Origin: a virus
Lineage: Duplodnaviria > Caudoviricetes
Length of the DNA stretch: 61,800 bases
Virus record (IMG/VR): IMGVR_UViG_3300006789_000022
Location: 1-61,800 of that record
Reading direction: 5' to 3' (one strand)
Shown here piece by piece: positions 18,453 to 49,716 of the stretch. Each line of letters begins with the position of its first letter. Positions within the stretch are counted from its first letter, which is position 1. Below the pieces are notes generated by a model that worked only from the letters and a program-made list of their open reading frames with translations, made no database searches and was not told the origin of the DNA. Made by a program: the position numbers and the translations under genes.

Positions 18453-18454
18453 CC

Positions 18455-19345
18455 ATGTCAGATTTTTTAAATAGTGTCGAAAAAGCACTACGCACAGTAG
18501 CCCCAATTCCGTCCGCTGTTGGGCGCGGAATCGGGCGGGCAGTTGGGAAGAAGAAAGCGGCTTCTGATCGGGAGAAGGAGAAAGAGAAGTATCTCGCCGA
18601 ATACGGTGAGAGCTTCAAGGAGCGTACCAGAGAGGATGCTCGGGAATTCCAGAAGATGCAGAAAGAAGGTAAGATTCCCTTGGATGTGAAATTCAATCCG
18701 CCTCCGGGCATCGCTACAATGCGCGATTACGAGGATCTCTGGTCAGACGATTATAAACAAGCACGAGAACGTGGTCGGAGAGAAACAGTCGCCCTGCAAG
18801 AGCAACTGAAAAGGCTAGGCCATGATCCGCACGGTGATTGGAAAAGAAAACGAGACCGCGAAAAATTTGAGGAATCCCTTCTCGGACGCGCTGCTGATCC
18901 AACGGACCCCCTTGACCCCTTGGTGCAGGAGCACCGATTGCGCGAAGCTGAAGATGCCGCCGCCCAACGGCAAAGGCTCCTTGAAAAAGAAGAACCACTT
19001 GAAGACTTTGACCCTCGCGGTGAGGAGCCACGCACACCGGAAAAACCGGACGCACTTGGGCGTTCCATGGCGCGTGGGTTTGACAAATTTCACTCCGCAC
19101 TGGGGTTTGAAGCGGCGAGTCCCCCCATCGACCCGTTTACTAACGAGCCTGTGGAGCCTGTGGAACTTAGGGGGCGACCGCTCATGTCCCAGCGGGACCG
19201 GATAGAAATGGAGAACAATAAAAAAACTACCCCCCTGCCTAAAGGCAAGGGGTCTATCGACCCAAGCTTGCTCCCCGACAAGAAGGCGACGTTAAGGGGA
19301 GAACGCCGGAAGCAAAAAAAGCAACAGCACAGACGCAGAAAGTAA
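18455..19345 (+). CDS. Charged hypothetical, possible internal virion protein (296 aa)
   Basis: Tightly tiled operon; shares an RPLMSQRDR segment with the upstream ORF. Confidence 0.55.
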   Translation: MSDFLNSVEKALRTVAPIPSAVGRGIGRAVGKKKAASDREKEKEKYLAEYGESFKERTREDAREFQKMQKEGKIPLDVKFNPPPGIATMRDYEDLWSDDYKQARERGRRETVALQEQLKRLGHDPHGDWKRKRDREKFEESLLGRAADPTDPLDPLVQEHRLREAEDAAAQRQRLLEKEEPLEDFDPRGEEPRTPEKPDALGRSMARGFDKFHSALGFEAASPPIDPFTNEPVEPVELRGRPLMSQRDRIEMENNKKTTPLPKGKGSIDPSLLPDKKATLRGERRKQKKQQHRRRK

Positions 19346-20335
19346 ATGGCTGACTTCTCATATGGCGACGACATCGCCCCGATGAAGGGCGAATACTTTG
19401 GTATGCGCCCCGTATCCACGCGCATGTCGGAGTATCTCTACGAGCAATACGACAGGCCGATGATGCAGATGCAGGCCGAACGTCGTAAGGTGCAGGCTCA
19501 GGATCTGGCCTTCCAACGGGCGCAGCTTGAGTTCGACAAGGCCAAGGAAGATAGTCGCAGGCAGCAGGAAGAGGCGGACCATTTGGCCGTCGTGTCCGCG
19601 CAGCTATCCGAGAGCCTTAACTCAGATATGAGTAATTTTGATAAAGTGAACCTCATCAATCAGACCCGCCAAGACTTGTATACCAGCAAGCCCAGACTGG
19701 CGGGCAGTCCACTTTTCAAGGGGCTGTTCACTAGCGCGACACAATCCGTGGCTGGGACTGAGGCCCAGCAGGATTACTACATCCCGCAGATGACCGCTAT
19801 ATCGTCCCTCGGGGATGTGCCTGCCGCCGAACAGCTTGCCGACGCGGACGGCATCAGGACTGAGAAGGAGAAAGGTCTCATAGAAGTCACGAGGGCGCAC
19901 GCGAAAGCACTCAGCGGCAAAGCGGCCACCACCCAGAGGGGCAAAAGGCTCGGCGCGGACATTGCCGATCTCAAGGACAATATTGCCATCGTCCGGCGTT
20001 TGGGCAAGGCGGGGACAACGAAACCGGAAACTGAAGAAGAAGAGGAGAGCTTCGATCCGCTTGAGCAAAAAGAGTCAAAGTTGGGGATGACCAAGGAGGA
20101 TGTGCAGCAAATGTCGGGCATCGCAGACACATACCTTACCGGAAAGGCCCTTGAACAATATAACGATGCCGATCACTTCTACGACGTAGGGTCTAGGAAA
20201 AATTACCTGCTCGACCAGCTAATGGCGAAGCGTATGCAGCTATTCGACGAGCTATATGGCGAGTCCACTTTCGTCCCCCCTGAAAGTAAGGTGGTGCAAG
20301 AAGATACCAGATCCCGTTTTCAAACCAAGCGTTAG
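19346..20335 (+). CDS. Helical protein, putative ejection/internal virion protein (329 aa)
   Basis: Coiled-coil character; directly precedes the giant protein. Confidence 0.5.
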   Translation: MADFSYGDDIAPMKGEYFGMRPVSTRMSEYLYEQYDRPMMQMQAERRKVQAQDLAFQRAQLEFDKAKEDSRRQQEEADHLAVVSAQLSESLNSDMSNFDKVNLINQTRQDLYTSKPRLAGSPLFKGLFTSATQSVAGTEAQQDYYIPQMTAISSLGDVPAAEQLADADGIRTEKEKGLIEVTRAHAKALSGKAATTQRGKRLGADIADLKDNIAIVRRLGKAGTTKPETEEEEESFDPLEQKESKLGMTKEDVQQMSGIADTYLTGKALEQYNDADHFYDVGSRKNYLLDQLMAKRMQLFDELYGESTFVPPESKVVQEDTRSRFQTKR

Positions 20336-20366: not shown

Positions 20367-23300
20367 ATGTCTGAGCAAACTGATACCCCAACCGTCAACA
20401 CCCTCGGGTTCTCCGAGTGGTCAACTGAAAATGTTTATGCCGACCCGCTTGAGAGCAGGTTAAAGTTCGGGGATTATGTCCGCGAGGAGTTCATCAAGGC
20501 AGACGCGTATACCCCCGATGTCGAGACAGGAGTCCGGCAAGGGCTTGCCGATATGTTACGCGAGGGAGGGTTACTTGAGCCGGACGGAGCGAACGCGGAA
20601 GAACTGGCGCAACGCATGGAGGACATCCAGAGGGGCAAGACATTTGACCAACTCGCCCGCACCTTCCAGCAGAGCCTGCCGGAACACGGCGAAGATCAGC
20701 GGACGCTGGACAATTATTTTGCGGCTGCCGTCGAGTCGCCTTCCCCCGAATATGCTGAAGAACTGCAACCGTTACGCGAAAAGGCTGGCGACGTAGTAAA
20801 CAGGAATCGGGACCAGTTACTGCGAGTCAAGGTAGACGCAGGCGAATTGCCGATGGCCCGCCTGTCGAACGGCCAACTTATCGTAGGTGAGGCCGCCGCA
20901 CGGATGGATCTTGTAGACGCGATCAAGGCGTCGTCCGAGGGGGGCGTTGCGATGGGTGACGCGTTGGCCGCGCAGGCGCAGTTAGAGACCCCCGACGGGT
21001 TCAGTATCCCGCTGTATCGCATCCAGAGACTGGCACGGGCTACCAGACTCCTTGAAGTGGAACGCAAACAGAACGAGGATTTCGACATCCAGCTAGACGG
21101 ACTTTCCACGGAAGCTGCCCAGTCCGAGTATAGCACGATGGACTGGTTGGAGCACAAGGCCGACAACCTTGGGAGAGGAATTTCAAATTTCTTTGGCCGC
21201 ATCATGGGTCAGGGGGAAGACATCGACAAGGCAGAGGAACGCCGCGAGGCGGTAAACGAGGCACGAGGGTCCGACATTCGACAGATAGCGGCGAAGTATG
21301 CCCTCAAGTTCGACATGCGCCCCGAAGACATGGAGCTTGCGGTTGAGCAGATGGTTCTCGACAACGCGGTCAACAAGCAAATGTTTGAGTTCCACGACGC
21401 GGACGACGACGATGTAGGCAAGAATTTGCGGATAGGGGGTTACGGCCTCCCGACCATGTCGGTGCAGGCGATGATCAACAAGGATGTCTTCGACAAGACC
21501 CTTGCCGCAAACCCCGAGCTTAGTGGAGAAGTTAAAACCATGCTTAACAAGCAGCGCATCTCGCATCTTCGATCCGAGTTCACTCAGCTTGACAAGTTCC
21601 TGTCGGACTACGGCTCAAGCGTGTCCGATGAGTGGAACAAGGCGCTCATCGCTGGGCGCACTGCTGGCGTCGAGGACTACAAGATTCTTGAGGGGTTCGT
21701 CGCGGACAAGGACAACTACAACGAGTTTGCCGAGAGGGCTGCTGGAATTGGCATGTCATTCCTGAACGGAGTTGGCCAGTTGTTCGCCGCTATCCCAGCC
21801 GCGTTCGGGTTTGATCCGGCGCAAGATTACTTGGCCTCGGTCAGCCAGAAGAACGCAGACCGCCGCCAACTCGCCGCTGTTTTTGGGGAGGAATTTGGAC
21901 TCCTGCAAGACGCCGCCGAGACAGCATTCCCCATGTTGATTGACATTGGGGCGACCGTCCTCCTCGCAGCCGCGACTGCCCCCGCTGGTGGTGCTGGTGG
22001 TGTGGCCTACGCGTCCCTCAAGGCCGGAGGAACTGCCACGGCCAGCATGACCGCCAAGGGCATGTTCAAGTCGATAACCTCAAACGTGTTCAGGAAGACC
22101 GGAGCCAAGTCCACCGTCGCTCAGGCGGAGGATCTGCTTGAAGCAAGCCTGATCAAGGGGACCAAAGAAGGGGCCGTTGACATCCTCAACGCCTACAACA
22201 GTAAACTCTCTGCCCACTTGGGCAACCTTCCCGCCATCTTCATCCCTGCCGCAACCCGTTCCGGTTCGGCAACCTACGGGGCGGTATACAATCAACTGAA
22301 GCAAGACCCCAGCGTTTCCGAAGAAGACGCGCACGACAGGGCGCTCGGGGCCATGCTCATGGCTGGCACGTTCACCGGAGTTCTCACGGCGGCGTTCTCT
22401 ACTATCGGACGCGGCGGGGTGGAAGATGCCCTGCTCAAGGGTCTCAGCTACAAGCAGATGAAAAGAGCGGGTGAGGAGATCACAGGTAAGCTGGGGGGCG
22501 ACTTCTTGAGCGCAGCGCAGAAAGCGATCAAGACGACGATGAAAAAATACTCATTTGGCGGGGTCAAGGGGCTGGCCAAAAATGTGTTCGACGAGGGTGT
22601 TGAGGAGAGCATCGACGAGTTTGTCAACGGGCTTGTCACTGACGCGGCCCTGCACGAGGACACCCCCATGCTGGAACGGCTCCAGCAGACTTGGCACGCG
22701 TTCGTCTTGGGCGGGATTATGGGAGGCTCCGTCCCCCTCGTCCAAAGAACCTTCCGCGCCCTGCAACCAGACGTTCTACGGGAACGGGAAAAGACTTCAT
22801 TCTACGAAGATGTTTTGGAGGAAATGTCCGCAGACCTTACCGCGAATGGTGCTCCGGTAACTGCACAATATGTTAACATGGTAGTGTCCGACATGCGGCG
22901 GAAAGACGCACGGGCATCCGTGATCCCGTCTCTTGAAGAACAGGAGGCCGAGCTTGGGAGGAGGGAGCCGGAAGCCACCGAAGAGGGGACACAACTCCCG
23001 TCCGGCATAACACCGGACCCAGAAATGGAGGCGTTGCTTGAGGAGAAAGTCAACCCCGACTCCGCTGCAAGGGCCGTGAACAATGTTCTCGGCAGCAGCG
23101 TTCCGGCTGTCGCTGGGGCTGACCCGACGACCGTGGAGGCCAAGGGGAACCTGATGCACCAACTGGAGTTGCCAGTTCAGGAAGCTGGCGCACTCGAAAA
23201 CTCGGACCACCAAGCGGTGCGTAATTTAATTCCTCGTCGCACCGAAGGCGTGGAGCCTGACGTATTTGAAGGAACCCGCCCGCCCAAAAAGAAGGCCATC

Positions 23301-26300
23301 ATCGACCCCGCCCGCGCCGAAGAGGCCGAGGCGATTGAAGTCGGGTTCAGGGAAACTGTCCGGCAGATCGACGAGGCCGAGGCCCTCTACAAGAAGATGG
23401 ATCAACAGGTAGCGGGGGCTGAAGTCGCGGGCGAATCTTCTGTCCGGCGGGCGCTGGAGCAGCGGGTCCGTGAGGGTAAGGCCGTAAGCCCAGAACAAGC
23501 TATCGAGTTAAGGGGGGAGGCATTCAAGGACCGCGTCCTCGCCTTGAAAGACCTCAAGGTTGAACAGAAACTGGAATCTCCCGAAACGAGACTCGCCGCA
23601 CTCTACGAGCAGGAATATGCCCAGACTGAGGAAAGACAACGAGAAGAAGATTTTCGCGACAACTTTGGCCCTGAAGACCTTGAAACAGGCGCTATGCGCC
23701 AGAACAATACGGTAGCTGTTGATGGTATTATCCGAAGCGGGTTCCCACAGGTTCTAACTGTAGCCAAACTCAAACGATTGGGCATCCCCTTTAACCAAGA
23801 CACTACGTCGGCAGTATTTCTTCGTGAGGCGAACCACCAGATTCAAAGACAAATCTCTGAAGCATACCCCAAGCTCCCTGTGACCCGTCCAGAAGGCGGA
23901 TTCGCCCTCGACTCGGCGTATGGCCAAGGGAAGGTATTCTTGGACAGAGTCGGTCGCGGGCAGTTTAACAACGACCCCCTCACCATGCTAAGTCTCCTTG
24001 AGACGGGAGCGTCCATCGTTGTCGATCCGGCCCATTTGGATTCCCCAACCCTGAACCCCGCGTTCAGGTTCGCTCGCGTTGGTGACAACGTGGTCGTGTC
24101 CGACATCATGGTCCCCGAGTCCGGTGGCCTCGTGTCCGCGCTCACCCCCACAGACCGCGCTCTGGTTCTCCAGCCGGACTACACACGGGTCGTTGATCTG
24201 GTTGAGCGGGTGCTCACGCTACGCGACGAAGGGTTAAGGGAGCCGGATGCAGTAATCGACTCTCCGTTTGAGCCGAACACGCAAACGACCGCGCAAGAAG
24301 TCCTGACCCAACTGGAAGAAGGAGTCGGTATTGATAAGTTTGTCACCCCCAACACTGGGGAACTCGCCCCTGAATTTGCTGAATCCGCCCAGATAGAATT
24401 ACGTCTCAGGGCGCAGGAAGCGTTGTTCACTGACGGCAAGGTGTCTCTCGTTGGGCTTGGCCGAGAAGTTGCCGACACTTACATGGCCGAGCAGACGGCC
24501 CGCCTCAAGCACTCCAAGGAGTCGTTCGTGGCGTCGGTGTCGGTGAACGAAGCTGCCGACCTTCAAGCAGACCCCGACTATAACGCGGCATCTGAAGTTG
24601 AAGATACCTACACCCCATTCCCAGAGAACGCCCCACCACCATTCCCCGAGTCGGGCATATCCAATCTCCTCAACGAGGCCCACGCCGACGCGGTCGCGGC
24701 CTTGGACGGAGATTCCAACCTGCGGCAGAGCGTAGTCCTCCTCGTCCAGAACGAAGTGTTCAACACCTCGTCTATTGATTTCAACAGGACTTCTACCAAA
24801 AGACTGTGGAGTTACGTTGTCCAGTGGATGGCGCAGGGGAACCACAAGACGAGTCCGGCCAGCATTGAATTCCAGAAAGCCCTGAAAGGGCGGCGGTTTG
24901 AAATGGGTACTCCCGTCAGGGAGGCTCTGCAACTAATGGCGTTGTCCTCTGCGTCCGTGGAAGGGACGCCCAAGACCGACGCAGCTTACCGTGCGTTCCT
25001 CCGCGACAAAATCCGTGGCCTCAAGGGCGGTGCCGAACCGTCAGATGCGGAAGTATTTTCGTTCCATAACTATGTTCGTGGGTCCGTCGGGGCGTTGCTG
25101 CTCCGGTCGCAGCCCTCGGGCATGAGCAAGGCCCATGACCAGAAGACTAATAAGAAGGCCATCGCCGCGCTGGGTCTGAAAGACGGAGACCCCGAGTCCA
25201 TAATTGAGGCCCTAGAACGGATCGTCGGTGTGTCTGACCGCGCCCAGAAGGAATACGACTCCCATCTCGTGTCCATCGCACGACTGCTGCTCCAGTCACC
25301 CGACTTCATCAGGAGCATTGAGTTGTCGATTGACGAGACCGACCTGAACTACGCTGGGAAGTTCGACACATTGACTGACGGCACCCCTGCTATCTCAATA
25401 AACATTAACGGACATAACCCGAGGGGGGTGGCCGACACGCTCGTCCACGAGTTGATCCACGCGTATGTGACTGGCGTCACCAGAAAACCAGCCGCCCAGC
25501 AAACACGCCAAGAGGCAGCCGCGATTGGGTTGTTGGAAGGAGTAATCGCCGACATTCGGGCAGACTTCAAGGCAATATCAAACCAAGAAACTACGCCCGT
25601 TGTTTTCTCGCAACGCGCCGTCCCTAGCGTAATGGGCCGTGGCAGGGTCTACAAGTATCACGACACCCGTGTGTATGACGCCCTTGCCAACGTGGATGAG
25701 TTCGTCGCGCACTTCCTTACGTCCACAGATTTCCAGAAGTTCGTCAAGACCATGCTGGCCGACAGGAATGCCCCCGCATTATACAGCAGGTTTGAACAAG
25801 TTGTTGCGGCCATTCGCTCATTTTTTCTGGGGGCAAACCCCGAGTTTGACTCGGCGTTCTCTGCCGTTCTGGATCTGTCGCATTCTTCTGTTCTGGCGGC
25901 TGGGCCGAGACGCCGCAGTAGGCGCAAACTGATTAGTGTGGAGGAGTTCCTTACCTTGCCGAACAAGGAGTCCCGCACCGCGAAGGACTTCGTCGCGGAC
26001 AGCGTCTTCCCGACGGACCCCGCCACCAACAGCACGACTTCCAAGGAGCCAGTGACGACCGAGTCCATCGTGGGCAAGATCGCGGAAGATGTCTCCCGTT
26101 CACAGCAGGAAGCTGTGAGACTTTCTTCCGGCGTGCAGGGGGCCACCGGAGTTGACGTTGATGCCCAGCAACGCGGGCGGGCAAACGTGGAGCGACTCCT
26201 GTCACTCATCAGAAACCGCATCGTGCCACCTGAGATGCGTATGGAGGTTGATACCAGCAAGCGGTCGGTGGACGCGGACGGGAACATGGTCGCCCCGCCG

Positions 26301-29300
26301 ATGATGTATGTGGACTCTAATACTGGAACCTTGATCGTGAACCCATTGGAACTGAGTGGGTTGTTGAAAGAATTTCAGGCTAACAATGGGGGCAGGCCCC
26401 TTTCCATTCGGACTCAGATGAACATCACCGCTGTGATTGCGAACGAGGAGATCGCACACGCGGCCTCGGTAGCCACGATCACGAAGGCCGAGCGGGACGA
26501 ACTTATCAATGGAATGACCTTCGCCGACGCCGAGGAGACCGTGAGCAACTACGGCGACGAGGGCAACGTAGGCAACAGGGAGCGCCTCCTTGAAGGGTGG
26601 CGGAACGGAGACCCCGCCGCGCAGCGTGAAATAGTGGAGGAGAGGCTCCGGCAACACGCCCAGAAGGTAACGAGGGGCTTCACTACCGAGGAGGAGATCG
26701 CGTTCCTCCGCAGGAACCCGAACCTTGTCCAACAAATCATCCGTTACTTCCAACGGTTCCTGAAGAAGCTCGGCTACTACAGGTCTCGCCGCGACATAAG
26801 CCCCCAGATGAGGACGGCGGTTGACCGTGTGGTGAATGAAATCAGGGCGCTGGAGGCGGGTTACCGATACTCCACGAACCTCAAGCCGTTCGACCCGAAC
26901 AACCCTGAATCTGTCATCGAGCAGTTCAGGAAGCAGGCGAACATGAACAAGCCCATCGAGCGGGCTGATGAGCCGAGGGAAGCCGAACCCGCGATGGCGG
27001 CTTCAGGGATCACGGCTCAGGTTCCAGCAGACGCGGGGGAAGTTATTGACGCCCGTGGCTGGACGAAGGTTGGCAGGCAACTTGGGTCTAACATGGGTGG
27101 GGTGTATGAAGACGGGGAGGGGAATAAATTTTACTTCAAGGAAAGCAAGTCACCAGAACACGCCCGTAACGAGGTGCTGGCCACGATTCTTTACGAAACC
27201 GCAGGCGCTGACATCCTCCCCATCCGTCTGGCGACGGGCAAGAACGCAGCAGGAGAGGACGTTCTGGGGACGGCCTCCGAGTGGCGTGAGGACTTCACGG
27301 ACTTCGATCCACAAGATCCGGCCATGCGTAAGGCCGCCTTCCCCGACTTCGCAATCCACGCGTGGTTGGCCAACTGGGACGTTGTCGGGTTGGTATATGA
27401 CAACCTCATGGTTGACGGTGAAGGGAACGTGGTTCATGTGGACACGGGTGGCGCACTCAAGTTCAGGGCGCAGGGTGAACCGAAGGGCGGTGCTTGGAAC
27501 GAGGGGGGTTCCGAGTTTGCAACGCTACGGGTGATGGGGCAGGCAGGCGAAGTGTTTGGTGGCATGTCCACCACTGACCTCCAGAACAGCGCGAACGAGC
27601 TACGCAAAATGTCCGACGATGTCATCCGGTCTGCGGTCGAGCGCGTGATGGGCGTGGGGGCCGACGGCACCGACATGGCCAACACCCTTATTGCGAGACG
27701 CAATAATATACTTAACGTGGCGTTCGGTGAGGGCCAGTTCGTGTCCTCCGGTATTACCGCTGGCCGCGACGTTCAGCAGCAAGCTGGGGTTACTCGTGGC
27801 GGGTTGAATTCCTTCGCCCAGAAAGTAGAAACCGGAGTGGTCTCGGCAAGTATGGCCGCCGACACACTGGCGAGCCTCCCGAACAGCGACCGGAACCGAG
27901 CCACAGAACTACTACACAAGCGGACGAAGTTCATGCGAGCGTTGTGGGCTGCTCTGGGCCTTAGCCAAGACACGTTCCAAGACAGGCAGACAAGACTTAG
28001 CAATTTCCGTCGGGCTTTGAACCGTCGGGCAGACGACCTCGACGCCACTACCCAGAAACAACAAACCCCTGTTATTGGGGACGATGTCCGCAAGTTCGAT
28101 CCGGTGGACCGCCAAGCTGCCAAGGAGCTTTCTAGGGGTTTGGCTTCAGGGATCACGGTCGGTGACTTTGATTTCGACGGCGTCTTCCCTGAAGGTCTTG
28201 AATATGATAGGTTTGAAGACGGCAGGTTCCGAGGGACTCCACTCCGCAAGTTTCAAGAGGGGATGCTGTCCGAAGGAGAAAAGCCTTCGGAAGACCCCCT
28301 AACAGAAAAGGACGTCGAGGAACTGGAGGAACGCCTAAAGAAACTAACCGTCGAGGGCGAGGTAGGCCGCTACTGGTATGAAGACGCCGCCAAGAAGATT
28401 CTCGAAATAACCAACGGCAATGTTGTCGAAGCCGAAAAGCTCATCGCGTTGTTGGCTATCTACTCCCCGCAAACCGGAGTGCAGGTTAATACCTATTTCG
28501 CTATTCGGGGTTACGAGCAACACGCCAATAAAGTCTCCCGCAAAGACTATAAGGTTAAAACTGCGGTTCAGGATAACAAAGCTCGTGCCGTCCTATACGA
28601 CAACAGAGATTGGGTAGGCCGGAAGACGGACAATTTCTACAAGAACATCATGTTCCACATCGTGCAGGAAGCGACACCGGAACAACTGAGGGCGATGCGT
28701 ATCGACACCGCGTTCTTGGAAGACATCCAGCAACCAGTCACCGTGGACATGTGGGTCTACAGGGCCTTGGGCTACGATACTATCGGGCTGACCGACAAAG
28801 AAGGGAAAGGTCCGTTCGGGTTTTCTGAGAAGATGATCAACCGCCTCACCTACTCCCTGAACCAGAACCTTGCCGAGGGGGAACCCCGATACGAGGCGCA
28901 CCAAGTGCAGGCGATGATCTGGACCGCGATCAAAGCGCGTTCCGAAAACAAAGCGGTCAAGAAGAAGACAGAAGCCGAAAGCATAGCGGCGGGGGACTTG
29001 GTCAGAAGAGGCAAAGAGCGCATCTTCGTCAGGCGGAAAGTGATCAAGATGGTCAAGGGGGAGGAAACAGAAGTCATGTCCGATGCGCCATCTGAGCGAG
29101 ACCACCAACGTAGGTGGACAGAGAACGCACTGGCCGCAACCGGAGTTGATTTCGTTGAAGCGTCCCGTTCTTTCGATTACTTCGTAAACTCGATGGGGCT
29201 GTTGGCAACGTGGGAAGTAATCGCGTCCGAGCAAACAGAGATGGGGAAACGGCTCGCGGCTATGTCTATCGACGAGAAAAGGTCGTTCACGGAGCAAGCG

Positions 29301-32300
29301 ATGCGATTGATAATCGACCCTACTACCGGAGAAGACCTCCTCGCAAAGGAACTGGGCATCGCACTGTCTACATCAAAAATCTCCACGGGGGGATACGCGG
29401 GTGGTGTGACGCCTAACGTCCTGTCTACTCTTTACCCCAACAAGCCAGCAGATGTGGGGGGCAAGGAGACTTACGACGACGACGCTATCCGCGCTTACGC
29501 ACGGTCGCTCCAATACATCTTCATGCAGGACGCCGTGCCGTGGGCTAGGTTCGTTAAGCACACGAAGCAGGATGTTTTCTACAAAGTATCAAAGCGTGGA
29601 ACGACCTCCAGAGGGGGCGTTCGGTTTGAAACGCAGGAAGAAGCGGAGAAGTTCGCCGCTAGTGAAAATGCTAAAATTGATACGGGCAAAGTTGTAAAGG
29701 TTGAAGATGGCGAGGGGTATCAAATCCAGAATAAAAAGGACAAGCCATACAAGCTACGGAGCAAGGAAACAAAAAAGATGGAGGAAACCCCTGTCTTTGT
29801 TCCGACCGTCACCGAAGACCCCGACCTCACTGAGCAACAGCGTATCGACAAAGCCGATAAGGAAGCGAGGGAAGCAGCCGAGTCCTTTAGGCGAGACAAC
29901 CTGATGCACATCATTGGGGGCAACAACCAGTCCCACGGCTTTCACCTCACGTTTGGAGAAAATCTCACAGAGTCCAAGGAACAAGAGATACAGGACTTCT
30001 TAACGTCCGTGCATCCTGACTTCGGGTTCACGAAGGTAGGCGCTAACGAGATAGTTGTAATTAACTATAAGATGGATTACATGGGTATGCTTCCTGTGTT
30101 GACAGACGGGGTGTTTGCGGCTAAAATAAATCAACAATATGGCCAAGAAGCAGAACTCGCAGAAATCACAACCGTCGGAGAATACGGATACCACGACTGG
30201 GGATCTGACTCCGCTGCCGAGGGGATCTTTTCCCTCTCTACCAGATTCACACCCGCTGTTCAGCAGAGGCTTCGTGGTTGGCGGCAGGGGTTTCAGCGGA
30301 TCTCGGCCCAGCGGGTCACGACCCAGCCCCACGCCCAAATCTTCAGACTAGCTTCCGGCATCACCGCCCGAAGGGGCGACGAAGATTATGGCCTCGCAAG
30401 CGAAGCCATGCTGCAAGCGTTTGAGCCGCGCAGGGACAGGGACAGGGAGTCGGCTCTCTCCGAGAGGGGTTCTCTCGACGAACGGCGTGAGGAGTGGGCG
30501 ATTGAAGAAGCGGCAAAATTACACCGCGTAGTTAGCGCCCAAAAAAAATCACTCCAAGCAGGGGGGCCACCGATGGCCTCCGTGCATGATATCAAGCTGA
30601 TCGCAGCGGACAGGGGTTTCAACGACGAGGTTACTGAAATCTATCTTGAATATCTGAGCGTGAAACGCACCATTGCTCGCTTGGATAAAGCACACCGCAT
30701 TGACGATTTAACGACGACGGAGGAGGCGACGGAGCTACTGGTGGGCGAAGGTCACGGAGACGCAGACGTTAAAAGGTGGCGGGCTATTGACAAGGCCGCT
30801 CCTGAGATCGACGGTGCCGCTATTGGTGCGTTTCAATCACTAACATTCACTGAATGGGAGGCCGCGAAAGGGGGCTGGGCTGGGAGGAGTGGCGTAGATA
30901 TCGACCCAGACACTGGTAAACAAGAACCGCCAAGCTGGTTGGACAGGGTCAAGATGGCCCCGCAGATTGCGAAGAAAGCGCGGATCAAAGTCCGAAACCT
31001 CCACGCTCGGTTACAGGAGATCGACCAAGAGTTCTTTGAACTTGAGCGTCGGCGGAAGGAAGCAGACACGGCCCTTCTGTCTGGGGTGGCGACCCGTGCG
31101 AAAATTGATTCGCTGCAAAACGAACTGATCTTGGAAGTAGCCCGCCTGAGAGGTTACGCCCCGTCGCTGTATCACGGCACCGCTAGGAGGCTGAGTATAC
31201 AGGCCCTGTTCGACAAGTTCGGGATCTCCCATGTCAGGTTGATGCCGCTCCATCCAGAAATACCTCAACACCCTGACCGCAAGGTAAAGATTGTGATGAG
31301 GAAAGGTTATGACCCTGCCGAGGTGCCGACGGTTGTCCGCGACAGCATAGACGAGTTCGTGCATGAGCATAAGTTTGACCACAGGTATCCTTTCGAGGTT
31401 TACAAGGGGGCCACCGGAGAACACTACACTCCGGCCACTGGTCTGATTTTCCTGTCCCCAAGGCAATCACACGCGCACGGTTTCGCTATGGCAAAAGCGG
31501 GCCATATTAACCGGAAGATAGCCGGAGCTGGCTCCCGAATGAGGGTGACGGAGGATCTTATCCTGCCGACCTTCGTCAAGGTGGACAAGATTTTTGACCC
31601 CCGTAAAGACTGGAGGTTAGTTGAGGATGTTCTCAACAGGTTAAGGCGGAAGCGGCATCTGATGGGGGAGGACGTATGGATGGAAACCGAACTGGATAAA
31701 CCATTCCACCTCCCGTCCAAGGCCGAAAGACAGGGCCTCACGGATGCCGCAGACAGGGCAGATGAGCAGGCAGCAGACTACTACAGGCTCATCAACGGCA
31801 AGTGGGATTGGTGGGAAAGGCCAGAGGTCGTCGATGCCGTGTTTGACTTGGGGTTTGACGCGATGCTCGTGTCTGAAAGTCCCGACTCACACGGGGTGCA
31901 GTCGGACGGACGAATGAATCTCGCGGTGCGTGACCCCGAGAAGCTCAAGACCGCACACCCCAGAACCTACGACAGGGACGGGAACCTCATCCCGCCATCG
32001 AAGCGGTTCGACGAGAGCAAGGACGCCCACATGTATTCAGGAATCACGACCCAGTTCGGTTGGACGGGGGACGAGGAACTGACCGCAGAGCAGACCAAGG
32101 AACTGGGGGAGATCCAGAAAGAACACGACAGCATCCTTAACGAGTATAAACATATTCTGGATAAGGGATCGCAGGCATGGCGTGGTGATGGTGGACGACA
32201 CAGGCGGAACGTCTTAACGGGACTGTCCCGCACAGAAGAAGTTCATCAAGGTTACCGATGGGACTTCATGGGCGAAGACGACTTGGGGTTCGGGTTTACT

Positions 32301-35300
32301 CCAGACCCCGAGCAGTATGAGGAGAACGCGGGCCAATTCGGGGCGGTGCCTGAGATGGGCATAGCAAATGTTACGATAGCTGAAATCGCCGCCCGACTTC
32401 AACCGCTCGTGAACAGGGCGGCAGAGATAGCGGGGTGGTCCCACAGACACATGTATCACGGAACGTCCTACGCTGAACAACCAGCAGGGGAACTGCCGTT
32501 CTGGAAGGAGCAGCCCGAACCCCACCGCCCCACGTTTGGCACGTTCGACCCCACTAAGTCCGATTACGCCGGACCAAAAGGACTCGTCTTCTTCTCGCCG
32601 AAAGTCCACAGGGCCGAAGAGTTTATAGGGATGCAGGAGGGAGGAGGCGGCCACGCGATCATTCCGGTGGTCACGAAAGCAGACATGAACATCTTCGACC
32701 CCCGCACCAACTGGGAAGAGTTCGTGGATGTTATTGTCATGTATCACGCCCTTGAATACCTCGGCCCCGAAGCCGAGGGCATGACGGACGAGGAGATCGT
32801 TCAACGGTTCATCGACGACAACACGGCGAAAGGCAAGGCTGGCGAGGCTTTCACTGACCAGAGCATGAATAGGATCAAAACAGGGAACTGGATCTACTGG
32901 GAGAAGCCGCTTGTCGTGGACGCGATCATGGCCAAATACGACGGGATGTTGGTTTCTGAGCCTGTTACCTTCAGCAAAGAACAGTTAGACGAAGCTGGCC
33001 TCGTTAAGGACGAGCATATGAACCTCGCCTTGCGTAACCCCAGCCTAGTCAAGAGCGTGGCACCGATCACCTTGGACTCAAAGGGGGAGATCGTCCCACT
33101 GAGCGAGCGGTTCAACCCAGCCAGCCCCGCGTTCATCCACTCCGGCATCACGTTCGGTGACGCGTCCGACCTCCCGTCCGAGTTCAACTCGGAGGGCGTG
33201 GACTACAGCCAGTTCATCGAGGTTCTGGAGATGCCCTTCATCGAGAAGGGACCGTTCCAGAAAGTGAAGGGAACGTGGAGGAAACTGTTCAAGGGCGAGA
33301 CCGACCCAACTGTGCAGCGTTACGTCCGGCAGCGGGACGCGTTCCTCAGAACGAACGACAAGATCGTCGAGGAATACCACTCCAAGTATAAGTCTGCTCT
33401 GGAGAAGGACTTCCCGAACCCCGACGACATCCCGTGGGACGACATCCAAGCAGCCACCGGAACCACTGACAACATCGACCCAGACCCAGACAACGTGTTG
33501 CTGGATGCACGGAACAAGGAGAAGGATGCAGCCCACGCCCAGTATCAGGCCGACCTCGCTACCGAGTATGCGAAGCACAAGCAGGCGGAAGATGCCGAGA
33601 AGGCAAAGATCGCCACCGAACCGGACCCAGACAAGCGCAAGACCCTCTACAGGGCAGCGGCAGACGCACGGAGGGCAAAGCAAAAGGCTTCAAAAGCGGC
33701 GCTCGGGACTACCAAGGGAGCCGCCGACGAAGCGGCCCAGCAAAAATACGAAGACGCCAAGGACAAGTCATTTGAGACGAAGAAGGCAGACATGATCAAG
33801 GACAGGAACGAGGCGTTCGACAGGCTACGGTCCACCGCCCCAAGCCTGTTCCCCGTCCTCCTCGACCTCCGGCGTCTGACCGACGAGCTATCTGCTCAGG
33901 CCAAGAGTCTGTTCGGGGTGTTCTCCGCGAAAGACCTGAGCGTTAAGTTCGATAACAATATGGGGCTTTACGTCACGCGCAGGTATCACATGTTCTCCGA
34001 CACCGACTACGTCGAGCGCATCCTTAGATCGGAGGCGACTAACGACAAGGCCGTCAGGGACGCGGCCATCGACTTCATGCGGGACCAGTTCATCAAGTTT
34101 GAATTCGACAGGTTCAAGCAGGACGGGCGGTCAGATGCCGACGCGCTTGCTGCCGCCGAAGCTAAATACGACAGCAGGGAACGGGGCGGACAGTCCTTGG
34201 GCTACCAGATGGCCCGTGATTTCCTCCAGTCCTTTGACACGGACACGGGTCCGATGGACTTCGCGTCGGCGTTCGACTTCGCAGGGAAGCCCGCCTCCCT
34301 GCCCGCCAGACTGTCCGACTCCCTCAAGGCGCTGACCAAGAACCTTGAAGGCAGGGCCGAGATCCCGAAGCCGCTCGCGGACCTGATGGGCGCGAACAAC
34401 GTGCCGGAGGACAGCATCGACTCGCTCCTCTACACGTTAGGCACGGTCTCCAAGATCGCCGCCCACCAGTCATTCCTTAATAAGATGAGGCAGCAGGGCG
34501 AGGTTGACGGGTGGCTTATGACCAACCAGCAGAAGAAGGATGCGGAAAAGAAAGCCAAGACGAAGGAGGAGTTCGACCGCATCAGTTCGATGAAGCCAAT
34601 CGTATCCTCCGGTGCTGACAGTGGGCTGAACCCGTTGGCTGGGATGTGGGTGGACAGGGACGTTCACGACGACATCCAGCCTATGTTCCAGCAGACCGTC
34701 AGGGAGCCTAACGACGCGTCCTCTCGGGTGCTGCACAACGCGATGACCTACGCCCAGAAGGCAACGGGCTTCGCCATGGCGGCCAAGACGTTGGGTTCGG
34801 TAGGATTCTACCTCCGCAACATGCTCAGTAACGTGCTGTTCTTTGGTCCGGCGCAAGGATACTGGGGGGCAGGCAAGTCCCTCATCTCCGGCGACCCCAC
34901 CGAGGGGACGGGCATGTCTGCGGTCATGGCCACCGGAAGGGCCTTCAGGGGCAACGCAGCCCGTAGCAGCGCATACCTGCGGGAGCTTGAAGCTCTTGGG
35001 GTGTTCGGTGACGAGGTCCGCTCCGAGATCATGCTCAAGTTGATGCGCGGCGAGGAGACGTTCGCGTCCCTTGAATCGCAACTGCAAGACCTCAACAAGA
35101 GGGCCGCGACAATCAAGGGGGCTAAGGCGTTACAGTCTATCCAGAACACTGCCGCCCGTCTCGGGTCCGCAATGGATTCGTTCTACAAGATCGGATACTT
35201 TGAGCACGAGTTGGCGGTCATCGAGGAAGCAGCCAAGCACGAGGAGGAGACGGGGATGCCGAAGAAGGACCGGAAGTATTCTCTTATGGAGCCTTACCAG

Positions 35301-36551
35301 CGGAAGCAACACGCCGCCGACATCATCTCGGCCACCGCTCAGTCATACGCCCGTGCTCTCCCAGTCATCAAGAAGATCAGCGGCTCGGGGTTCGGCCTCC
35401 TCTTCGCACCGTTCATCCGGTTCACGGCAGAGGTTCCACGAATCGCGGTGAACACGTTCACGCTGGCGCGTAAGGAGATGAAGGATTCCAATCCAGTCAT
35501 CAAGGCCCGAGGGCGGAGACGCATGACGGGCTTCAGTGCCGTGGCGATCTTCTCCACTGCGGTCCCCGCCATGCTCCAGAAACTCCTGTCCGACATGGGC
35601 GAGGACGAGGACGAGGCGTTCCGTATGTCCCTCCCCCCTTATCTCAGAAATCATACTTTCTATTACTTCAGGGGGGACAGCGCCATCGCCAAGGCAGCGC
35701 GTAAATTGTCAGGGGGCAAGGAGGGAGACCTCACCACGTTCGACCTCACCTACCTGAACCCGTTCGCCGTGATCGCTGACCCGTTCCTCCGTGGGATGGA
35801 GCACCTCGTGAGAGGGGAGCCGATGGTCGCAGCCGAGAAGATCGTGACGACCGCGTTCCTTGAGCCATACCTCGGGGACCAGATCCTCGCCGGATCTATC
35901 GTTGACGTTAAGGAGAACCGAGACGCCAGATCAGGCAGGCCGATCTACGAGGAGTCTGACCCGCTGTGGAGGAAGCTCGGCAAGATGAGCCTCTACGTCG
36001 GCAAGGAGGCTTACGGCCCACGGACCCCGATGAAGTTTCACGAGGCGTGGAAATCGGCTGGGGGAGAGGTGAACAAGTTCGCCGACTCGCCGTTCGGGAT
36101 AATCCTGAGTGAGTTTTATCCGGTAAGGCCCCGCTCAAATGACCCAGCCGACCAGTTCTCTCGGGTCGTATACCAACTGAGGGACGAGCAACGGCGCGTC
36201 CAGCAGAGGTTCAACAAGCTCAAGCAGTCCAAGGGCATGGGCGAGCGAGAGGTCAAGGCCATCCACAGGGACATCAGGAAGTCCCGCATGAGGATCAACA
36301 GCAAGTTGTCTCAGGCCATGCGTGGGTTCAACGGACTCGGCGTCAACAACTACGACCTCTACCAGCAACTACGCGGGGCGCGATACGGGGAGCGGAGATC
36401 CAAGCTACTCTTCTCAGGGTTCATGGAGAATCCGGTCCCGACCACTGACCTCGTCGAGACCCTGATGCGGACGCCACAAGGACAGCAGCGGCTCAGGTGG
36501 CTGATGGAGGAACACTCGGAGAACCCAAGGTTCCTGAAGCTGGACGACTAG
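20367..36551 (+). CDS. Giant polyvalent/internal virion protein (5394 aa) with zincin, kinase-like, HhH-like and two ADP-ribosyltransferase-like modules
   Basis: Uninterrupted 16.2-kb ORF containing LVHELIH; GSNMGG..FYFK..NWDVVG..DNL..HVDTGG; WY..YSPQ..GRKT..VTVDMW; and YHGT..F[LF]S..[FY]D[AG]MLVSE twice. Confidence 0.8.
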   Translation: MSEQTDTPTVNTLGFSEWSTENVYADPLESRLKFGDYVREEFIKADAYTPDVETGVRQGLADMLREGGLLEPDGANAEELAQRMEDIQRGKTFDQLARTFQQSLPEHGEDQRTLDNYFAAAVESPSPEYAEELQPLREKAGDVVNRNRDQLLRVKVDAGELPMARLSNGQLIVGEAAARMDLVDAIKASSEGGVAMGDALAAQAQLETPDGFSIPLYRIQRLARATRLLEVERKQNEDFDIQLDGLSTEAAQSEYSTMDWLEHKADNLGRGISNFFGRIMGQGEDIDKAEERREAVNEARGSDIRQIAAKYALKFDMRPEDMELAVEQMVLDNAVNKQMFEFHDADDDDVGKNLRIGGYGLPTMSVQAMINKDVFDKTLAANPELSGEVKTMLNKQRISHLRSEFTQLDKFLSDYGSSVSDEWNKALIAGRTAGVEDYKILEGFVADKDNYNEFAERAAGIGMSFLNGVGQLFAAIPAAFGFDPAQDYLASVSQKNADRRQLAAVFGEEFGLLQDAAETAFPMLIDIGATVLLAAATAPAGGAGGVAYASLKAGGTATASMTAKGMFKSITSNVFRKTGAKSTVAQAEDLLEASLIKGTKEGAVDILNAYNSKLSAHLGNLPAIFIPAATRSGSATYGAVYNQLKQDPSVSEEDAHDRALGAMLMAGTFTGVLTAAFSTIGRGGVEDALLKGLSYKQMKRAGEEITGKLGGDFLSAAQKAIKTTMKKYSFGGVKGLAKNVFDEGVEESIDEFVNGLVTDAALHEDTPMLERLQQTWHAFVLGGIMGGSVPLVQRTFRALQPDVLREREKTSFYEDVLEEMSADLTANGAPVTAQYVNMVVSDMRRKDARASVIPSLEEQEAELGRREPEATEEGTQLPSGITPDPEMEALLEEKVNPDSAARAVNNVLGSSVPAVAGADPTTVEAKGNLMHQLELPVQEAGALENSDHQAVRNLIPRRTEGVEPDVFEGTRPPKKKAIIDPARAEEAEAIEVGFRETVRQIDEAEALYKKMDQQVAGAEVAGESSVRRALEQRVREGKAVSPEQAIELRGEAFKDRVLALKDLKVEQKLESPETRLAALYEQEYAQTEERQREEDFRDNFGPEDLETGAMRQNNTVAVDGIIRSGFPQVLTVAKLKRLGIPFNQDTTSAVFLREANHQIQRQISEAYPKLPVTRPEGGFALDSAYGQGKVFLDRVGRGQFNNDPLTMLSLLETGASIVVDPAHLDSPTLNPAFRFARVGDNVVVSDIMVPESGGLVSALTPTDRALVLQPDYTRVVDLVERVLTLRDEGLREPDAVIDSPFEPNTQTTAQEVLTQLEEGVGIDKFVTPNTGELAPEFAESAQIELRLRAQEALFTDGKVSLVGLGREVADTYMAEQTARLKHSKESFVASVSVNEAADLQADPDYNAASEVEDTYTPFPENAPPPFPESGISNLLNEAHADAVAALDGDSNLRQSVVLLVQNEVFNTSSIDFNRTSTKRLWSYVVQWMAQGNHKTSPASIEFQKALKGRRFEMGTPVREALQLMALSSASVEGTPKTDAAYRAFLRDKIRGLKGGAEPSDAEVFSFHNYVRGSVGALLLRSQPSGMSKAHDQKTNKKAIAALGLKDGDPESIIEALERIVGVSDRAQKEYDSHLVSIARLLLQSPDFIRSIELSIDETDLNYAGKFDTLTDGTPAISININGHNPRGVADTLVHELIHAYVTGVTRKPAAQQTRQEAAAIGLLEGVIADIRADFKAISNQETTPVVFSQRAVPSVMGRGRVYKYHDTRVYDALANVDEFVAHFLTSTDFQKFVKTMLADRNAPALYSRFEQVVAAIRSFFLGANPEFDSAFSAVLDLSHSSVLAAGPRRRSRRKLISVEEFLTLPNKESRTAKDFVADSVFPTDPATNSTTSKEPVTTESIVGKIAEDVSRSQQEAVRLSSGVQGATGVDVDAQQRGRANVERLLSLIRNRIVPPEMRMEVDTSKRSVDADGNMVAPPMMYVDSNTGTLIVNPLELSGLLKEFQANNGGRPLSIRTQMNITAVIANEEIAHAASVATITKAERDELINGMTFADAEETVSNYGDEGNVGNRERLLEGWRNGDPAAQREIVEERLRQHAQKVTRGFTTEEEIAFLRRNPNLVQQIIRYFQRFLKKLGYYRSRRDISPQMRTAVDRVVNEIRALEAGYRYSTNLKPFDPNNPESVIEQFRKQANMNKPIERADEPREAEPAMAASGITAQVPADAGEVIDARGWTKVGRQLGSNMGGVYEDGEGNKFYFKESKSPEHARNEVLATILYETAGADILPIRLATGKNAAGEDVLGTASEWREDFTDFDPQDPAMRKAAFPDFAIHAWLANWDVVGLVYDNLMVDGEGNVVHVDTGGALKFRAQGEPKGGAWNEGGSEFATLRVMGQAGEVFGGMSTTDLQNSANELRKMSDDVIRSAVERVMGVGADGTDMANTLIARRNNILNVAFGEGQFVSSGITAGRDVQQQAGVTRGGLNSFAQKVETGVVSASMAADTLASLPNSDRNRATELLHKRTKFMRALWAALGLSQDTFQDRQTRLSNFRRALNRRADDLDATTQKQQTPVIGDDVRKFDPVDRQAAKELSRGLASGITVGDFDFDGVFPEGLEYDRFEDGRFRGTPLRKFQEGMLSEGEKPSEDPLTEKDVEELEERLKKLTVEGEVGRYWYEDAAKKILEITNGNVVEAEKLIALLAIYSPQTGVQVNTYFAIRGYEQHANKVSRKDYKVKTAVQDNKARAVLYDNRDWVGRKTDNFYKNIMFHIVQEATPEQLRAMRIDTAFLEDIQQPVTVDMWVYRALGYDTIGLTDKEGKGPFGFSEKMINRLTYSLNQNLAEGEPRYEAHQVQAMIWTAIKARSENKAVKKKTEAESIAAGDLVRRGKERIFVRRKVIKMVKGEETEVMSDAPSERDHQRRWTENALAATGVDFVEASRSFDYFVNSMGLLATWEVIASEQTEMGKRLAAMSIDEKRSFTEQAMRLIIDPTTGEDLLAKELGIALSTSKISTGGYAGGVTPNVLSTLYPNKPADVGGKETYDDDAIRAYARSLQYIFMQDAVPWARFVKHTKQDVFYKVSKRGTTSRGGVRFETQEEAEKFAASENAKIDTGKVVKVEDGEGYQIQNKKDKPYKLRSKETKKMEETPVFVPTVTEDPDLTEQQRIDKADKEAREAAESFRRDNLMHIIGGNNQSHGFHLTFGENLTESKEQEIQDFLTSVHPDFGFTKVGANEIVVINYKMDYMGMLPVLTDGVFAAKINQQYGQEAELAEITTVGEYGYHDWGSDSAAEGIFSLSTRFTPAVQQRLRGWRQGFQRISAQRVTTQPHAQIFRLASGITARRGDEDYGLASEAMLQAFEPRRDRDRESALSERGSLDERREEWAIEEAAKLHRVVSAQKKSLQAGGPPMASVHDIKLIAADRGFNDEVTEIYLEYLSVKRTIARLDKAHRIDDLTTTEEATELLVGEGHGDADVKRWRAIDKAAPEIDGAAIGAFQSLTFTEWEAAKGGWAGRSGVDIDPDTGKQEPPSWLDRVKMAPQIAKKARIKVRNLHARLQEIDQEFFELERRRKEADTALLSGVATRAKIDSLQNELILEVARLRGYAPSLYHGTARRLSIQALFDKFGISHVRLMPLHPEIPQHPDRKVKIVMRKGYDPAEVPTVVRDSIDEFVHEHKFDHRYPFEVYKGATGEHYTPATGLIFLSPRQSHAHGFAMAKAGHINRKIAGAGSRMRVTEDLILPTFVKVDKIFDPRKDWRLVEDVLNRLRRKRHLMGEDVWMETELDKPFHLPSKAERQGLTDAADRADEQAADYYRLINGKWDWWERPEVVDAVFDLGFDAMLVSESPDSHGVQSDGRMNLAVRDPEKLKTAHPRTYDRDGNLIPPSKRFDESKDAHMYSGITTQFGWTGDEELTAEQTKELGEIQKEHDSILNEYKHILDKGSQAWRGDGGRHRRNVLTGLSRTEEVHQGYRWDFMGEDDLGFGFTPDPEQYEENAGQFGAVPEMGIANVTIAEIAARLQPLVNRAAEIAGWSHRHMYHGTSYAEQPAGELPFWKEQPEPHRPTFGTFDPTKSDYAGPKGLVFFSPKVHRAEEFIGMQEGGGGHAIIPVVTKADMNIFDPRTNWEEFVDVIVMYHALEYLGPEAEGMTDEEIVQRFIDDNTAKGKAGEAFTDQSMNRIKTGNWIYWEKPLVVDAIMAKYDGMLVSEPVTFSKEQLDEAGLVKDEHMNLALRNPSLVKSVAPITLDSKGEIVPLSERFNPASPAFIHSGITFGDASDLPSEFNSEGVDYSQFIEVLEMPFIEKGPFQKVKGTWRKLFKGETDPTVQRYVRQRDAFLRTNDKIVEEYHSKYKSALEKDFPNPDDIPWDDIQAATGTTDNIDPDPDNVLLDARNKEKDAAHAQYQADLATEYAKHKQAEDAEKAKIATEPDPDKRKTLYRAAADARRAKQKASKAALGTTKGAADEAAQQKYEDAKDKSFETKKADMIKDRNEAFDRLRSTAPSLFPVLLDLRRLTDELSAQAKSLFGVFSAKDLSVKFDNNMGLYVTRRYHMFSDTDYVERILRSEATNDKAVRDAAIDFMRDQFIKFEFDRFKQDGRSDADALAAAEAKYDSRERGGQSLGYQMARDFLQSFDTDTGPMDFASAFDFAGKPASLPARLSDSLKALTKNLEGRAEIPKPLADLMGANNVPEDSIDSLLYTLGTVSKIAAHQSFLNKMRQQGEVDGWLMTNQQKKDAEKKAKTKEEFDRISSMKPIVSSGADSGLNPLAGMWVDRDVHDDIQPMFQQTVREPNDASSRVLHNAMTYAQKATGFAMAAKTLGSVGFYLRNMLSNVLFFGPAQGYWGAGKSLISGDPTEGTGMSAVMATGRAFRGNAARSSAYLRELEALGVFGDEVRSEIMLKLMRGEETFASLESQLQDLNKRAATIKGAKALQSIQNTAARLGSAMDSFYKIGYFEHELAVIEEAAKHEEETGMPKKDRKYSLMEPYQRKQHAADIISATAQSYARALPVIKKISGSGFGLLFAPFIRFTAEVPRIAVNTFTLARKEMKDSNPVIKARGRRRMTGFSAVAIFSTAVPAMLQKLLSDMGEDEDEAFRMSLPPYLRNHTFYYFRGDSAIAKAARKLSGGKEGDLTTFDLTYLNPFAVIADPFLRGMEHLVRGEPMVAAEKIVTTAFLEPYLGDQILAGSIVDVKENRDARSGRPIYEESDPLWRKLGKMSLYVGKEAYGPRTPMKFHEAWKSAGGEVNKFADSPFGIILSEFYPVRPRSNDPADQFSRVVYQLRDEQRRVQQRFNKLKQSKGMGEREVKAIHRDIRKSRMRINSKLSQAMRGFNGLGVNNYDLYQQLRGARYGERRSKLLFSGFMENPVPTTDLVETLMRTPQGQQRLRWLMEEHSENPRFLKLDD

Positions 36552-46004: not shown

Positions 46005-46058
46005 GGGAGTAGTGTATCAGCTAGGTGTTAAGTTGTCAAATGTTTTCTTGAATTATTT
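46005..46058 (-). promoter_or_regulatory. Leaderless-type early promoter with A-rich UP-like repeat
   Basis: AAATAATTCAAGAAAACAT-TTGACA-17-TACACT-ACTCCC-ATG. Confidence 0.85.
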
Positions 46059-46280
46059 TCTGAACTTGAAAGGCACGGCGCGTTGGACTGCATCGAGCAG
46101 GCCCCTGCTGTAGAGGCAGGTGAGGACGCGAGTGGTCTCCTCAAGGTCAGGCACGATACCGTTCTGGTAAGGGTGCTGGGCCTTGAGTTCATCGACGATG
46201 CGGTCGAGTGAGTCGATCACGGCGACGAGATCCTCGGTCGGGATCGGGAGTTCAGGGGTAGGGTCGTGGGAATCAGGCAT
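46053..46280 (-). CDS. Hypothetical protein (75 aa)
   Basis: Stop codon supplied by the promoter repeat; leader ACATTTACCCAGTTACCATC. Confidence 0.65.
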   Translation of the reverse strand: MPDSHDPTPELPIPTEDLVAVIDSLDRIVDELKAQHPYQNGIVPDLEETTRVLTCLYSRGLLDAVQRAVPFKFRK

Positions 46281-46300
46281 GATGGTAACTGGGTAAATGT

Positions 46301-46558: not shown

Positions 46559-46586
46559 GATGGTAACTGGGTAAATGTTTCTGGGG

Positions 46587-46871: not shown

Positions 46872-46899
46872 GATGGTAAGTGGGTAAATGATTCTGGGG

Positions 46900-47901: not shown

Positions 47902-47907
47902 TTGGGG

Positions 47908-48276: not shown

Positions 48277-48282
48277 TTGGGC

Positions 48283-49682: not shown

Positions 49683-49716
49683 GGTAGTGGTAGTATTCAG
49701 GATTCAGGATTCGGGG

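Follow-up and report, generated by a model that had tools for sequence, protein, structure and literature searches.

Polyproteins of eukaryotic RNA viruses are made as long precursors with short conserved sites at the borders of their products and an internal protease, the sites and the protease co-varying by lineage. In phages, the internal proteins and Alt of T4 carry a capsid-targeting sequence that is removed by the prohead protease gp21, and the inner-body proteins of phiKZ are cut by gp175; both phages pack anti-host enzymes into the head and trim them at a short consensus site, and these proteins are products of individual genes, each equipped with a targeting peptide, and are processed by a dedicated prohead protease cutting after Glu. 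Here we analyzed the virus record IMGVR_UViG_3300006789_000022 (Duplodnaviria; Caudoviricetes), whose whole stretch of 61,800 nucleotides (nt) is referred to as the window, and describe its giant open reading frame (ORF) at 20367..36551 on the plus strand, which encodes a putative polyvalent internal-virion-type polyprotein of 5394 amino acids (aa) that is punctuated by copies of the tetrapeptide SGIT. Head loading and trimming of anti-host enzymes as in T4 and phiKZ are proposed here too; unlike in those systems, the modules lie in one chain and no match to such a prohead protease family was found in the genome. Unlike the RNA virus polyproteins, the precursor is a DNA phage structural protein with interchangeable cargo and no fixed replicase set, and its cleavage is what we infer.

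Like the polyvalent proteins described by Iyer, Burroughs, Anand, de Souza and Aravind (2017, PMC5512222), the giant protein joins unrelated enzyme domains in one phage polypeptide near structural genes, with modules of ART-PolyVal type, GNAT and methyltransferase modules in relatives, and a zincin-like peptidase hub; zincin-like peptidases were proposed by the same authors to process polyvalent proteins. The accessible part of that paper defines no cleavage motif and does not contain the word 'linker', whereas a lineage-dependent border motif is present here; unlike the proteins described in that part, moreover, the cargo here lies between cores resembling ejection proteins, and the family is nearly free of cysteine. 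Podovirus internal virion proteins (T7 gp14–16 type, IVP-C/D and N4 gp50) are likewise encoded in the structural gene block and have large, mostly helical conserved parts, but the protein of the window is the product of one fused 5394-aa gene with five cargo modules and recurring border motifs. Domains destined for the host cytoplasm are hosted by internal virion proteins according to Hardies et al. (PMC4819975). Our literature search found no paper describing such a border motif, and the supplementary files of Iyer et al. may list related architectures.

Results

SGIT recurs in the giant protein and is conserved at the protein level

Seven in-frame SGIT copies were identified in the giant protein, namely J0 at aa 879 (23001..23012, context QLPSGIT), J1 at aa 2213 (27003..27014), J2 at aa 2461 (27747..27758), J3 at aa 2594 (28146..28157), J4 at aa 3330 (30354..30365), J5 at aa 3891 (32037..32048) and J6 at aa 4259 (33141..33152), all on the plus strand, as are all parts of the protein given below. 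From J1 onwards they are spaced by 248, 133, 736, 561 and 368 aa, and both positions and spacings agree exactly with those of a first-pass annotation made from the sequence alone. Composition predicts 0.054 copies; none of 2000 residue shuffles held more than two, no 4-mer whatever reached seven copies in 300 shuffles of the protein, and the second-commonest 4-mer of the giant protein itself occurs four times. SGIT was absent from the 40 other translated ORFs of the window (11,966 aa). Six distinct 12-nt spellings encode the seven copies, only those at 27003 and 28146 being identical, so the motif is conserved at the protein level, as had been supposed from its mostly different codons.

Two sites were reassigned by comparison with relatives. 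The copy at 23001 had been set aside as an outlier in the first-pass annotation; since S-G-[I/V] is found at the equivalent place in 19/22 proteins, it is counted here as junction J0, the exceptions being P0020–P0022, in which a J0-equivalent motif is absent. Conversely, RLSSGVQ at 26127 had been listed as a variant of the motif. The sequence is present (SSGVQ, aa 1920–1924, 26124..26138), yet lineages D–F, i.e. three of the six lineages, have N or A instead of its Gly, and therefore this doubtful site, junction-like only in lineages A–C, is not counted; in a structure model by AlphaFold2 (AF2) its region forms a low-confidence helix. P0020–P0022 constitute lineage F, where Pro/Thr-type repeats and an inserted region occupy aa ~880–1200, around the missing J0. 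An SGLG is located ~40 residues downstream of the J0 place in this lineage, where the surrounding sequence is conserved, and may represent J0 in a new position.

Modules are gained, lost and replaced exactly at the motif

Searching with the C-terminal 1136 aa as the query yielded 25 giant proteins of 3250–5394 aa. In 21 relatives with at least 44% C-terminal identity (P0003–P0022 and P0026), [S/T]-G-[I/L/V] was present at every border of the variable region; J1, J4 and J5 are kept in relatives, J6 is spelled SGVT in P0006, P0007 and P0026, and three IMG/VR contigs with 82–89% C-terminal identity keep SGIT at the equivalent places. From these proteins 88 distinct sites were gathered, selected solely for [S/T]-G-[I/L/V]. 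Position −2, on which no selection had been made, was L, I, V, A or M in 87 of the 88 sites, and position −1 was mostly a small residue; the constraint on position −2 defines the motif as aliphatic-x-S-G-[I/L/V]-x.

Exchange at the motif was exemplified by cargo module 2 (27759..28145), the 133-aa segment running from SGIT to SGIT between J2 and J3, which forms a singleton (cluster 10) present only in the window among the compared proteins. The contig L003 (P0003) lacks this module, and its BLAST alignment with the window breaks off at aa 2464 and resumes at aa 2596, i.e. at the ends of the two SGIT copies. P0007 lacks the module as well, P0005 retains a 7-aa remnant between two SGIT copies in the same slot, and in P0004, P0006 and P0026 a module of 276–287 aa (285 aa in P0004) occupies its place. 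Cargo module 2 begins with AGRDVQQQAGVT; the same-slot module of P0004, though different, shares the start of AGRDVQQQAGVT, and a degenerate AGIT follows there. P0011 carries one cargo module, and P0010 carries none, a single TGIT joining its two conserved cores.

Altogether, 78 inter-junction segments fell into 16 clusters. Within the variable region, 274/586 starts and 287/585 ends of BLAST alignments lay between −6 and +9 of a junction, compared with 5% for random positions; because the compared proteins are related, so that border counts are not independent, and because the junction set was picked by a regular expression, this figure is to be read as a strong tendency and not as a probability. 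The motif is placed at module borders, where homology between relatives breaks, and modules are exchanged there, which bears out the first-pass proposals that SGIT marks borders and exchange junctions. A conserved short motif at domain borders is also what characterizes a processed polyprotein.

Some apparent counterparts were discarded. 'EGGP', which recurs in P0025, is a tandem repeat and was rejected as a border motif; the gene split in Pseudoalteromonas phage Y3, considered as a counterpart of J6, falls elsewhere; and six stand-alone matches of the C-terminal core (898–1786 aa, on contigs of 4–9 kb) look like fragments, because the three that were read begin at an internal Met. In Aeromonas phage ST4 (L006, 3692–7225), the same kinase-like domain as in cargo module 1 of the window (see below) is part of a 1177-aa protein with Pro/Ala-rich linkers and 2 Cys, in which the recurring border motif is absent, and thus the punctuation is not general to polyvalent proteins.

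The motif changes in concert within lineages

The residue after Gly was I or V at all 76 sites of lineages A–E, while lineage F used SGL[G/A/M], usually SGLGP, at 12/12 distinct sites. Modules of the same families, with tails ending ...TQESILR, ...LTGGAALG and ...PPTALG, were followed by SGIT or SGLG depending on the lineage, namely that a cargo module carries the flavour of its host protein. These observations bear on whether the motif could be mainly a recombination joint for cassette swapping, its conservation being a by-product. Module gain and loss exactly at the motif would agree with such a joint, as would the 16 identical bases that J1 and J3 have in common. We regard it as very unlikely: six spellings for seven copies mean that the copies are not preserved as identical DNA, constraint at the protein level extends to position −2 and to the residue after Gly, and foreign modules adopt the resident flavour.

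A full HMMER scan with aa 1560–2212 as the query detected 134 cluster representatives, most of 3000–5200 aa, so the family comprises at least 134 clusters at 50% identity. Other recurring words were observed at the borders in this wider family, namely SELGA (P0115 and P0128), IRFQLS(E/D) (P0145), TQAG (P0118), LETRFG (P0035), LQSRYG (P0041), TSIG (P0079) and LFSAPTG (P0043). Outside the clade bearing the S-G motif (SG clade), the 4-mer counts were modestly unusual, with the observed count reached in 2/300 shuffles for P0115, 9/300 for both P0145 and P0043, 13/300 for P0118, 41/300 for P0035 and 59/300 for P0128. Because of these modest statistics, a word defined beforehand by its position was examined in addition, i.e. 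the tetrapeptide that lies a constant distance behind P-x-S-x-R-F-[D/N], the conserved ART tail. This word recurred at least twice elsewhere in its own protein in 19/46 cases, each expected 0.04–0.2 times, the other 27 showing no recurrence; SELG/ELGA, TQAG, TRFG, SRYG, TSIG and QLSE were the recurring ones outside the SG clade. Since the motif is uniform within a protein and differs between lineages, a shared reader that evolves with it is suggested, most simply a protease, and this concerted change is the strongest indirect support for cleavage.

Two zincin-like domains are candidate readers

Two zincin-like domains were recognized in the middle core. D1 (aa 1644–1819, 25296..25823) contains HELIH (aa 1694–1698, nt 25446–25460) followed by Glu 1778 (NVDEF), which is invariant among aligned relatives. 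In the AF2 model of aa 1560–2212 (mean predicted local distance difference test score, pLDDT, 63.6), three strands with pLDDT 70–89 (residues 93–97, 105–109 and 115–120, numbered from aa 1560) precede the HExxH helix (129–146), and D1 hence shows a three-stranded sheet before this helix and a Glu ligand downstream, as an HExxH zincin does. D2 (aa 1954–2166, 26226..26864) contains EEIAH (aa 2027–2031, nt 26445–26459), the E-E-x-x-H pattern being invariant in 18/18 aligned sequences; Pfam gave no match for D2, and hhalign aligned it to D1 with a probability of 82.5% (E 1.1e-6) and the two motifs in register. Family-wide, the D2 column reads EExxH in 94/148 matches and HExxH in 37/148, and the D1 column HExxH in 96/128 and EExxH in 21/128, i.e. 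His and Glu change places between the tandem domains at the first residue of the motif. Between D2 and J1 lies a tail of 46 residues (aa 2167–2212, 26865..27002), which is modelled at pLDDT <50 and carries indels among relatives.

D2 was present in every punctuated relative checked. Because P0115, P0128 and P0118 are punctuated and lack D1, D2 is at least as good a candidate protease as the HELIH domain, and the earlier suggestion that the HELIH zincin is the cutter is weakened accordingly, its zincin-like layout standing and its presence not being shared by these three relatives. Other self-contained mechanisms were dropped: a cysteine protease in cis is excluded because the protein contains no Cys, an intein-like or other self-cleaving fold does not suit flanks that are unrelated at each site, and 2A-like ribosome skipping would require the G-P that follows the motif only in lineage F. 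Six-frame searches of the complete genome for prohead proteases gave no match at E ≤ 1 to PF04586, PF03420, PF01343 or PF00574, which cover the S78, S77, S49 and ClpP families and which a very divergent protease could escape.

The motifs could also be cleavage sites for a different protease, which would be an as yet unrecognised one of the phage or one that the host supplies once the protein has been ejected, and we judge this quite improbable. Host cleavage may be required for P22 gp20 (PMC8954989), a new protease could hide among the many ORFs of the window phage that match no family, and the built-in candidates are imperfect, D1 missing from some punctuated relatives and D2 having the atypical EExxH in most family matches. 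A conserved host enzyme, however, would not explain why SGIT, SGLG, SELGA, FQLSE and TQAG are used in close phage lineages, and the genome is without a match to the four prohead protease families.

The conserved cores may resemble ejection proteins, and the family avoids cysteine

A sequence search of the PDB matched the D1 region to 9sfn_G, an 'Internal virion protein' (E 4e-4 over 75 residues), for which entry code the literature search returned no paper; neither the first 1559 aa nor the C-terminal core had a match in the PDB. VIA-align related the D1 region to the PhiM1 ejectosome (8vb2_A, Z 6.5 over 149 residues, below the caution line of 8). The C-terminal core is ~27% identical to a protein of Pseudoalteromonas phage vB_Pun_Y3 and 21% identical to Pelagibacter phage HTVC027P gp85, annotated as 'putative structural protein'; among named phages, no nearer relatives than these turned up. 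Judged from these similarities, the conserved parts (the N-terminal part, the middle core and the C-terminal core) appear to resemble a fused set of ejection proteins with the cargo placed before the last one. The weak similarity to podovirus internal virion proteins, together with a location in the phage structural region, is in line with the polyvalent-type protein seen in the first-pass annotation.

Cysteine was found at 0 of 5394 residues in the giant protein versus 0.92% in the other ORFs of the phage, once in 107,529 aa of 24 close homologs, and 23 times in the 350,136 aa that make up the 94 family representatives with 2000 aa or more. It is likewise absent from HTVC027P gp82–85 and from the large proteins encoded by Pseudoalteromonas phage Y3, and a near-total lack of Cys may mark proteins that pass through the tail and the periplasm.

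Threading of an unfolded chain fits this Cys avoidance too. If the protein is not cut, the motif could be a signal recognized by a partner without protease activity (a modifying enzyme, the portal or core, or a factor for packaging or assembly) or a hinge between modules that lets them unfold and pass the tail one by one. Lineage-specific change would fit any co-evolving binding partner, and the N4 virion RNA polymerase, a protein of 3500 aa, reaches the host without being cut (PMC5512222). We consider a motif that is never cut unlikely, since a hinge needs no specific sequence, the kinase-like protein of ST4 having Pro/Ala-rich linkers without any recurring motif, and since a docking signal at every border, even between the two cores of the cargo-free P0010, would have no obvious use.

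Layout of the giant protein and its cargo

The protein begins with a part conserved across all relatives (aa 1–878, 20367..23000), in which hydropathy indicated two transmembrane-like segments (aa 519–541 and aa 659–680). Behind J0 follows the middle core (aa 883–2212, 23013..27002), defined by conservation among relatives, and behind J6 the C-terminal core (aa 4263–5394, 33153..36548), which is 31–100% identical across the 25 giant proteins. Pfam named DUF7178 alone in the window protein, and PHROGs and Pfam scans together gave only DUF7178/phrog_3842 plus two weak PHROG matches.

Cargo module 1 (27015..27746) belongs to cluster 1, which has nine members of 248–251 aa, and shares 31–40% identity with parts of large proteins from 20 phage records; it had no match in Pfam, and its kinase-like label is a lead, as is its placement by Atlas near the HipA_2 and PI3_PI4_kinase clusters (0.92). 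Cargo module 3 (28158..30353, cluster 2) contains DUF7178 (PF23802, E 1.4e-7, aa ~2666–2857). Cargo modules 4 (30366..32036) and 5 (32049..33140) both belong to cluster 0 and are related to ART-PolyVal by clustering, and the tail PLSERFNPASPAFIH of module 5 precedes SGIT. Relative to the three closest relatives, module 4 has ~100–140 extra residues (window ~30500–30915), the BLAST alignments to them breaking at aa 3379–3418 and picking up at ~3516. PF18760 (ART-PolyVal) was found below the Pfam cut-off in related modules of P0019 and P0021 and as a precomputed match for P0017–P0019. Of the names given to these units at first, 'ART-like' holds for both modules only by way of their BLAST clustering with ART-PolyVal modules, and 'kinase-like' is kept as a lead. 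In relatives, modules in the same slots matched ART-PolyVal, GNAT and Methyltransf_23 in Pfam. With DUF7178 here, the 16 cargo clusters and these slot modules of relatives, at least two unrelated effector or enzymatic domains occur per polypeptide, as in polyvalent proteins.

Genome and gene setting

CheckV estimated 100% completeness, identifying the window as a complete virus genome of 61,800 bp. The phage is uncultured and known from its metagenome record alone, and an 8-kb blastn query had no match among 50,697 phage records. Phage replication genes are present, and the large terminase (14009–15796) lies 4.6 kb upstream of the giant ORF, which sits in the structural gene block; a large terminase near the giant ORF in a complete genome is the phage-type context of polyvalent proteins. 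The stretch that separates the terminase from the giant gene (16356–20335) holds three ORFs (698, 296 and 329 aa) with no family match. A weak scaffold match (PF06810, E 8e-4, below the cut-off) was found at 55632–56822, from which the head genes may lie at 52.8–60 kb (52821–60376) and the three ORFs may be tail or internal-virion genes. The GC skew is strongly positive (0.15–0.20) over 45001–51000 compared with the rest of the genome, and two ORFs on opposite strands overlap nearly fully at 44799–46004 (−, 401 aa, matching a PHROG ATPase family) and 44820–45989 (+, 389 aa).

Discussion

We propose that the giant gene encodes a virion-packaged polyprotein, the cores of which would be related to podovirus internal virion (ejection) proteins and would enclose a variable string of cargo enzymes between the middle and the C-terminal core. 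The border motifs would be proteolytic processing sites read by a protease that the phage encodes, for which the zincin-like domains within the protein itself are the likeliest candidates, so that the precursor would be cut into ~8 products, inside the capsid or after ejection. The scissile bond may precede the aliphatic residue (SG|IT), a position compatible with the S1′ pocket of a zincin. Processing at the motifs by a built-in zincin-like domain is given about an even chance (roughly 0.5).

Several results weigh against this reading. For the protease, the VIA-align similarities of D1 to anthrax lethal factor (Z 6.1), 3dl1 (Z 5.3) and SPRTN (Z 5.2) are weak, all under the caution line of 8, and Foldseek with the D1–D2 model returned nothing at E ≤ 0.001; D1 is absent from the three punctuated relatives that keep D2, and the Glu in place of the first His may inactivate D2 of the window phage. 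For the sites, the motif was looked for and not found in P0023–P0025 (31–32% identity), more than half of the tail-defined 4-mers did not recur, and the border counts derive from related proteins and a pattern-made junction set. The AF2 model of aa 2167–3366 is poor (mean pLDDT 38.7), and for that reason the location of its four junctions all in coil counts as weak support. Described systems also include uncut examples that differ from the cutting proposed here: zincin-like domains occur in unprocessed internal virion proteins, phiRIO-1 IVP-D was detected at full length by mass spectrometry (PMC4819975), and the N4 virion RNA polymerase, gp50, is reported to be packaged unprocessed (PMC5512222).

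In a broader and more tentative proposal, for which the odds are somewhat unfavourable, the whole, widespread family of giant Cys-free phage proteins would be plug-and-play polyproteins that combine ejectosome subunits with interchangeable anti-host enzymes, use a lineage-specific cleavage code and carry a co-evolving, atypical [H/E]ExxH zincin as its reader.

Phage proteins injected together with the DNA are the first weapons to face the defences of the host, but recognising them is difficult. Should cleavage occur at the border motifs, each delivered enzyme is exactly marked, and the idea put forward eight years ago that polyvalent proteins undergo processing becomes testable, with defined sites and two candidate active sites. 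Processing at these sites would also explain how cargo can be swapped between phages while leaving the ejection machinery undisturbed. The lineage-specific code would constitute a natural set of orthogonal protease/site pairs, and the scarcity of Cys, seen over ~350,000 residues in this family, may serve as a simple additional signature of tail-travelling proteins. If the broader proposal holds, phages would have in the punctuated giant proteins an equivalent of the strategy that RNA viruses follow with their polyproteins, and these proteins would provide a rule for finding virion-delivered effectors from sequence alone.

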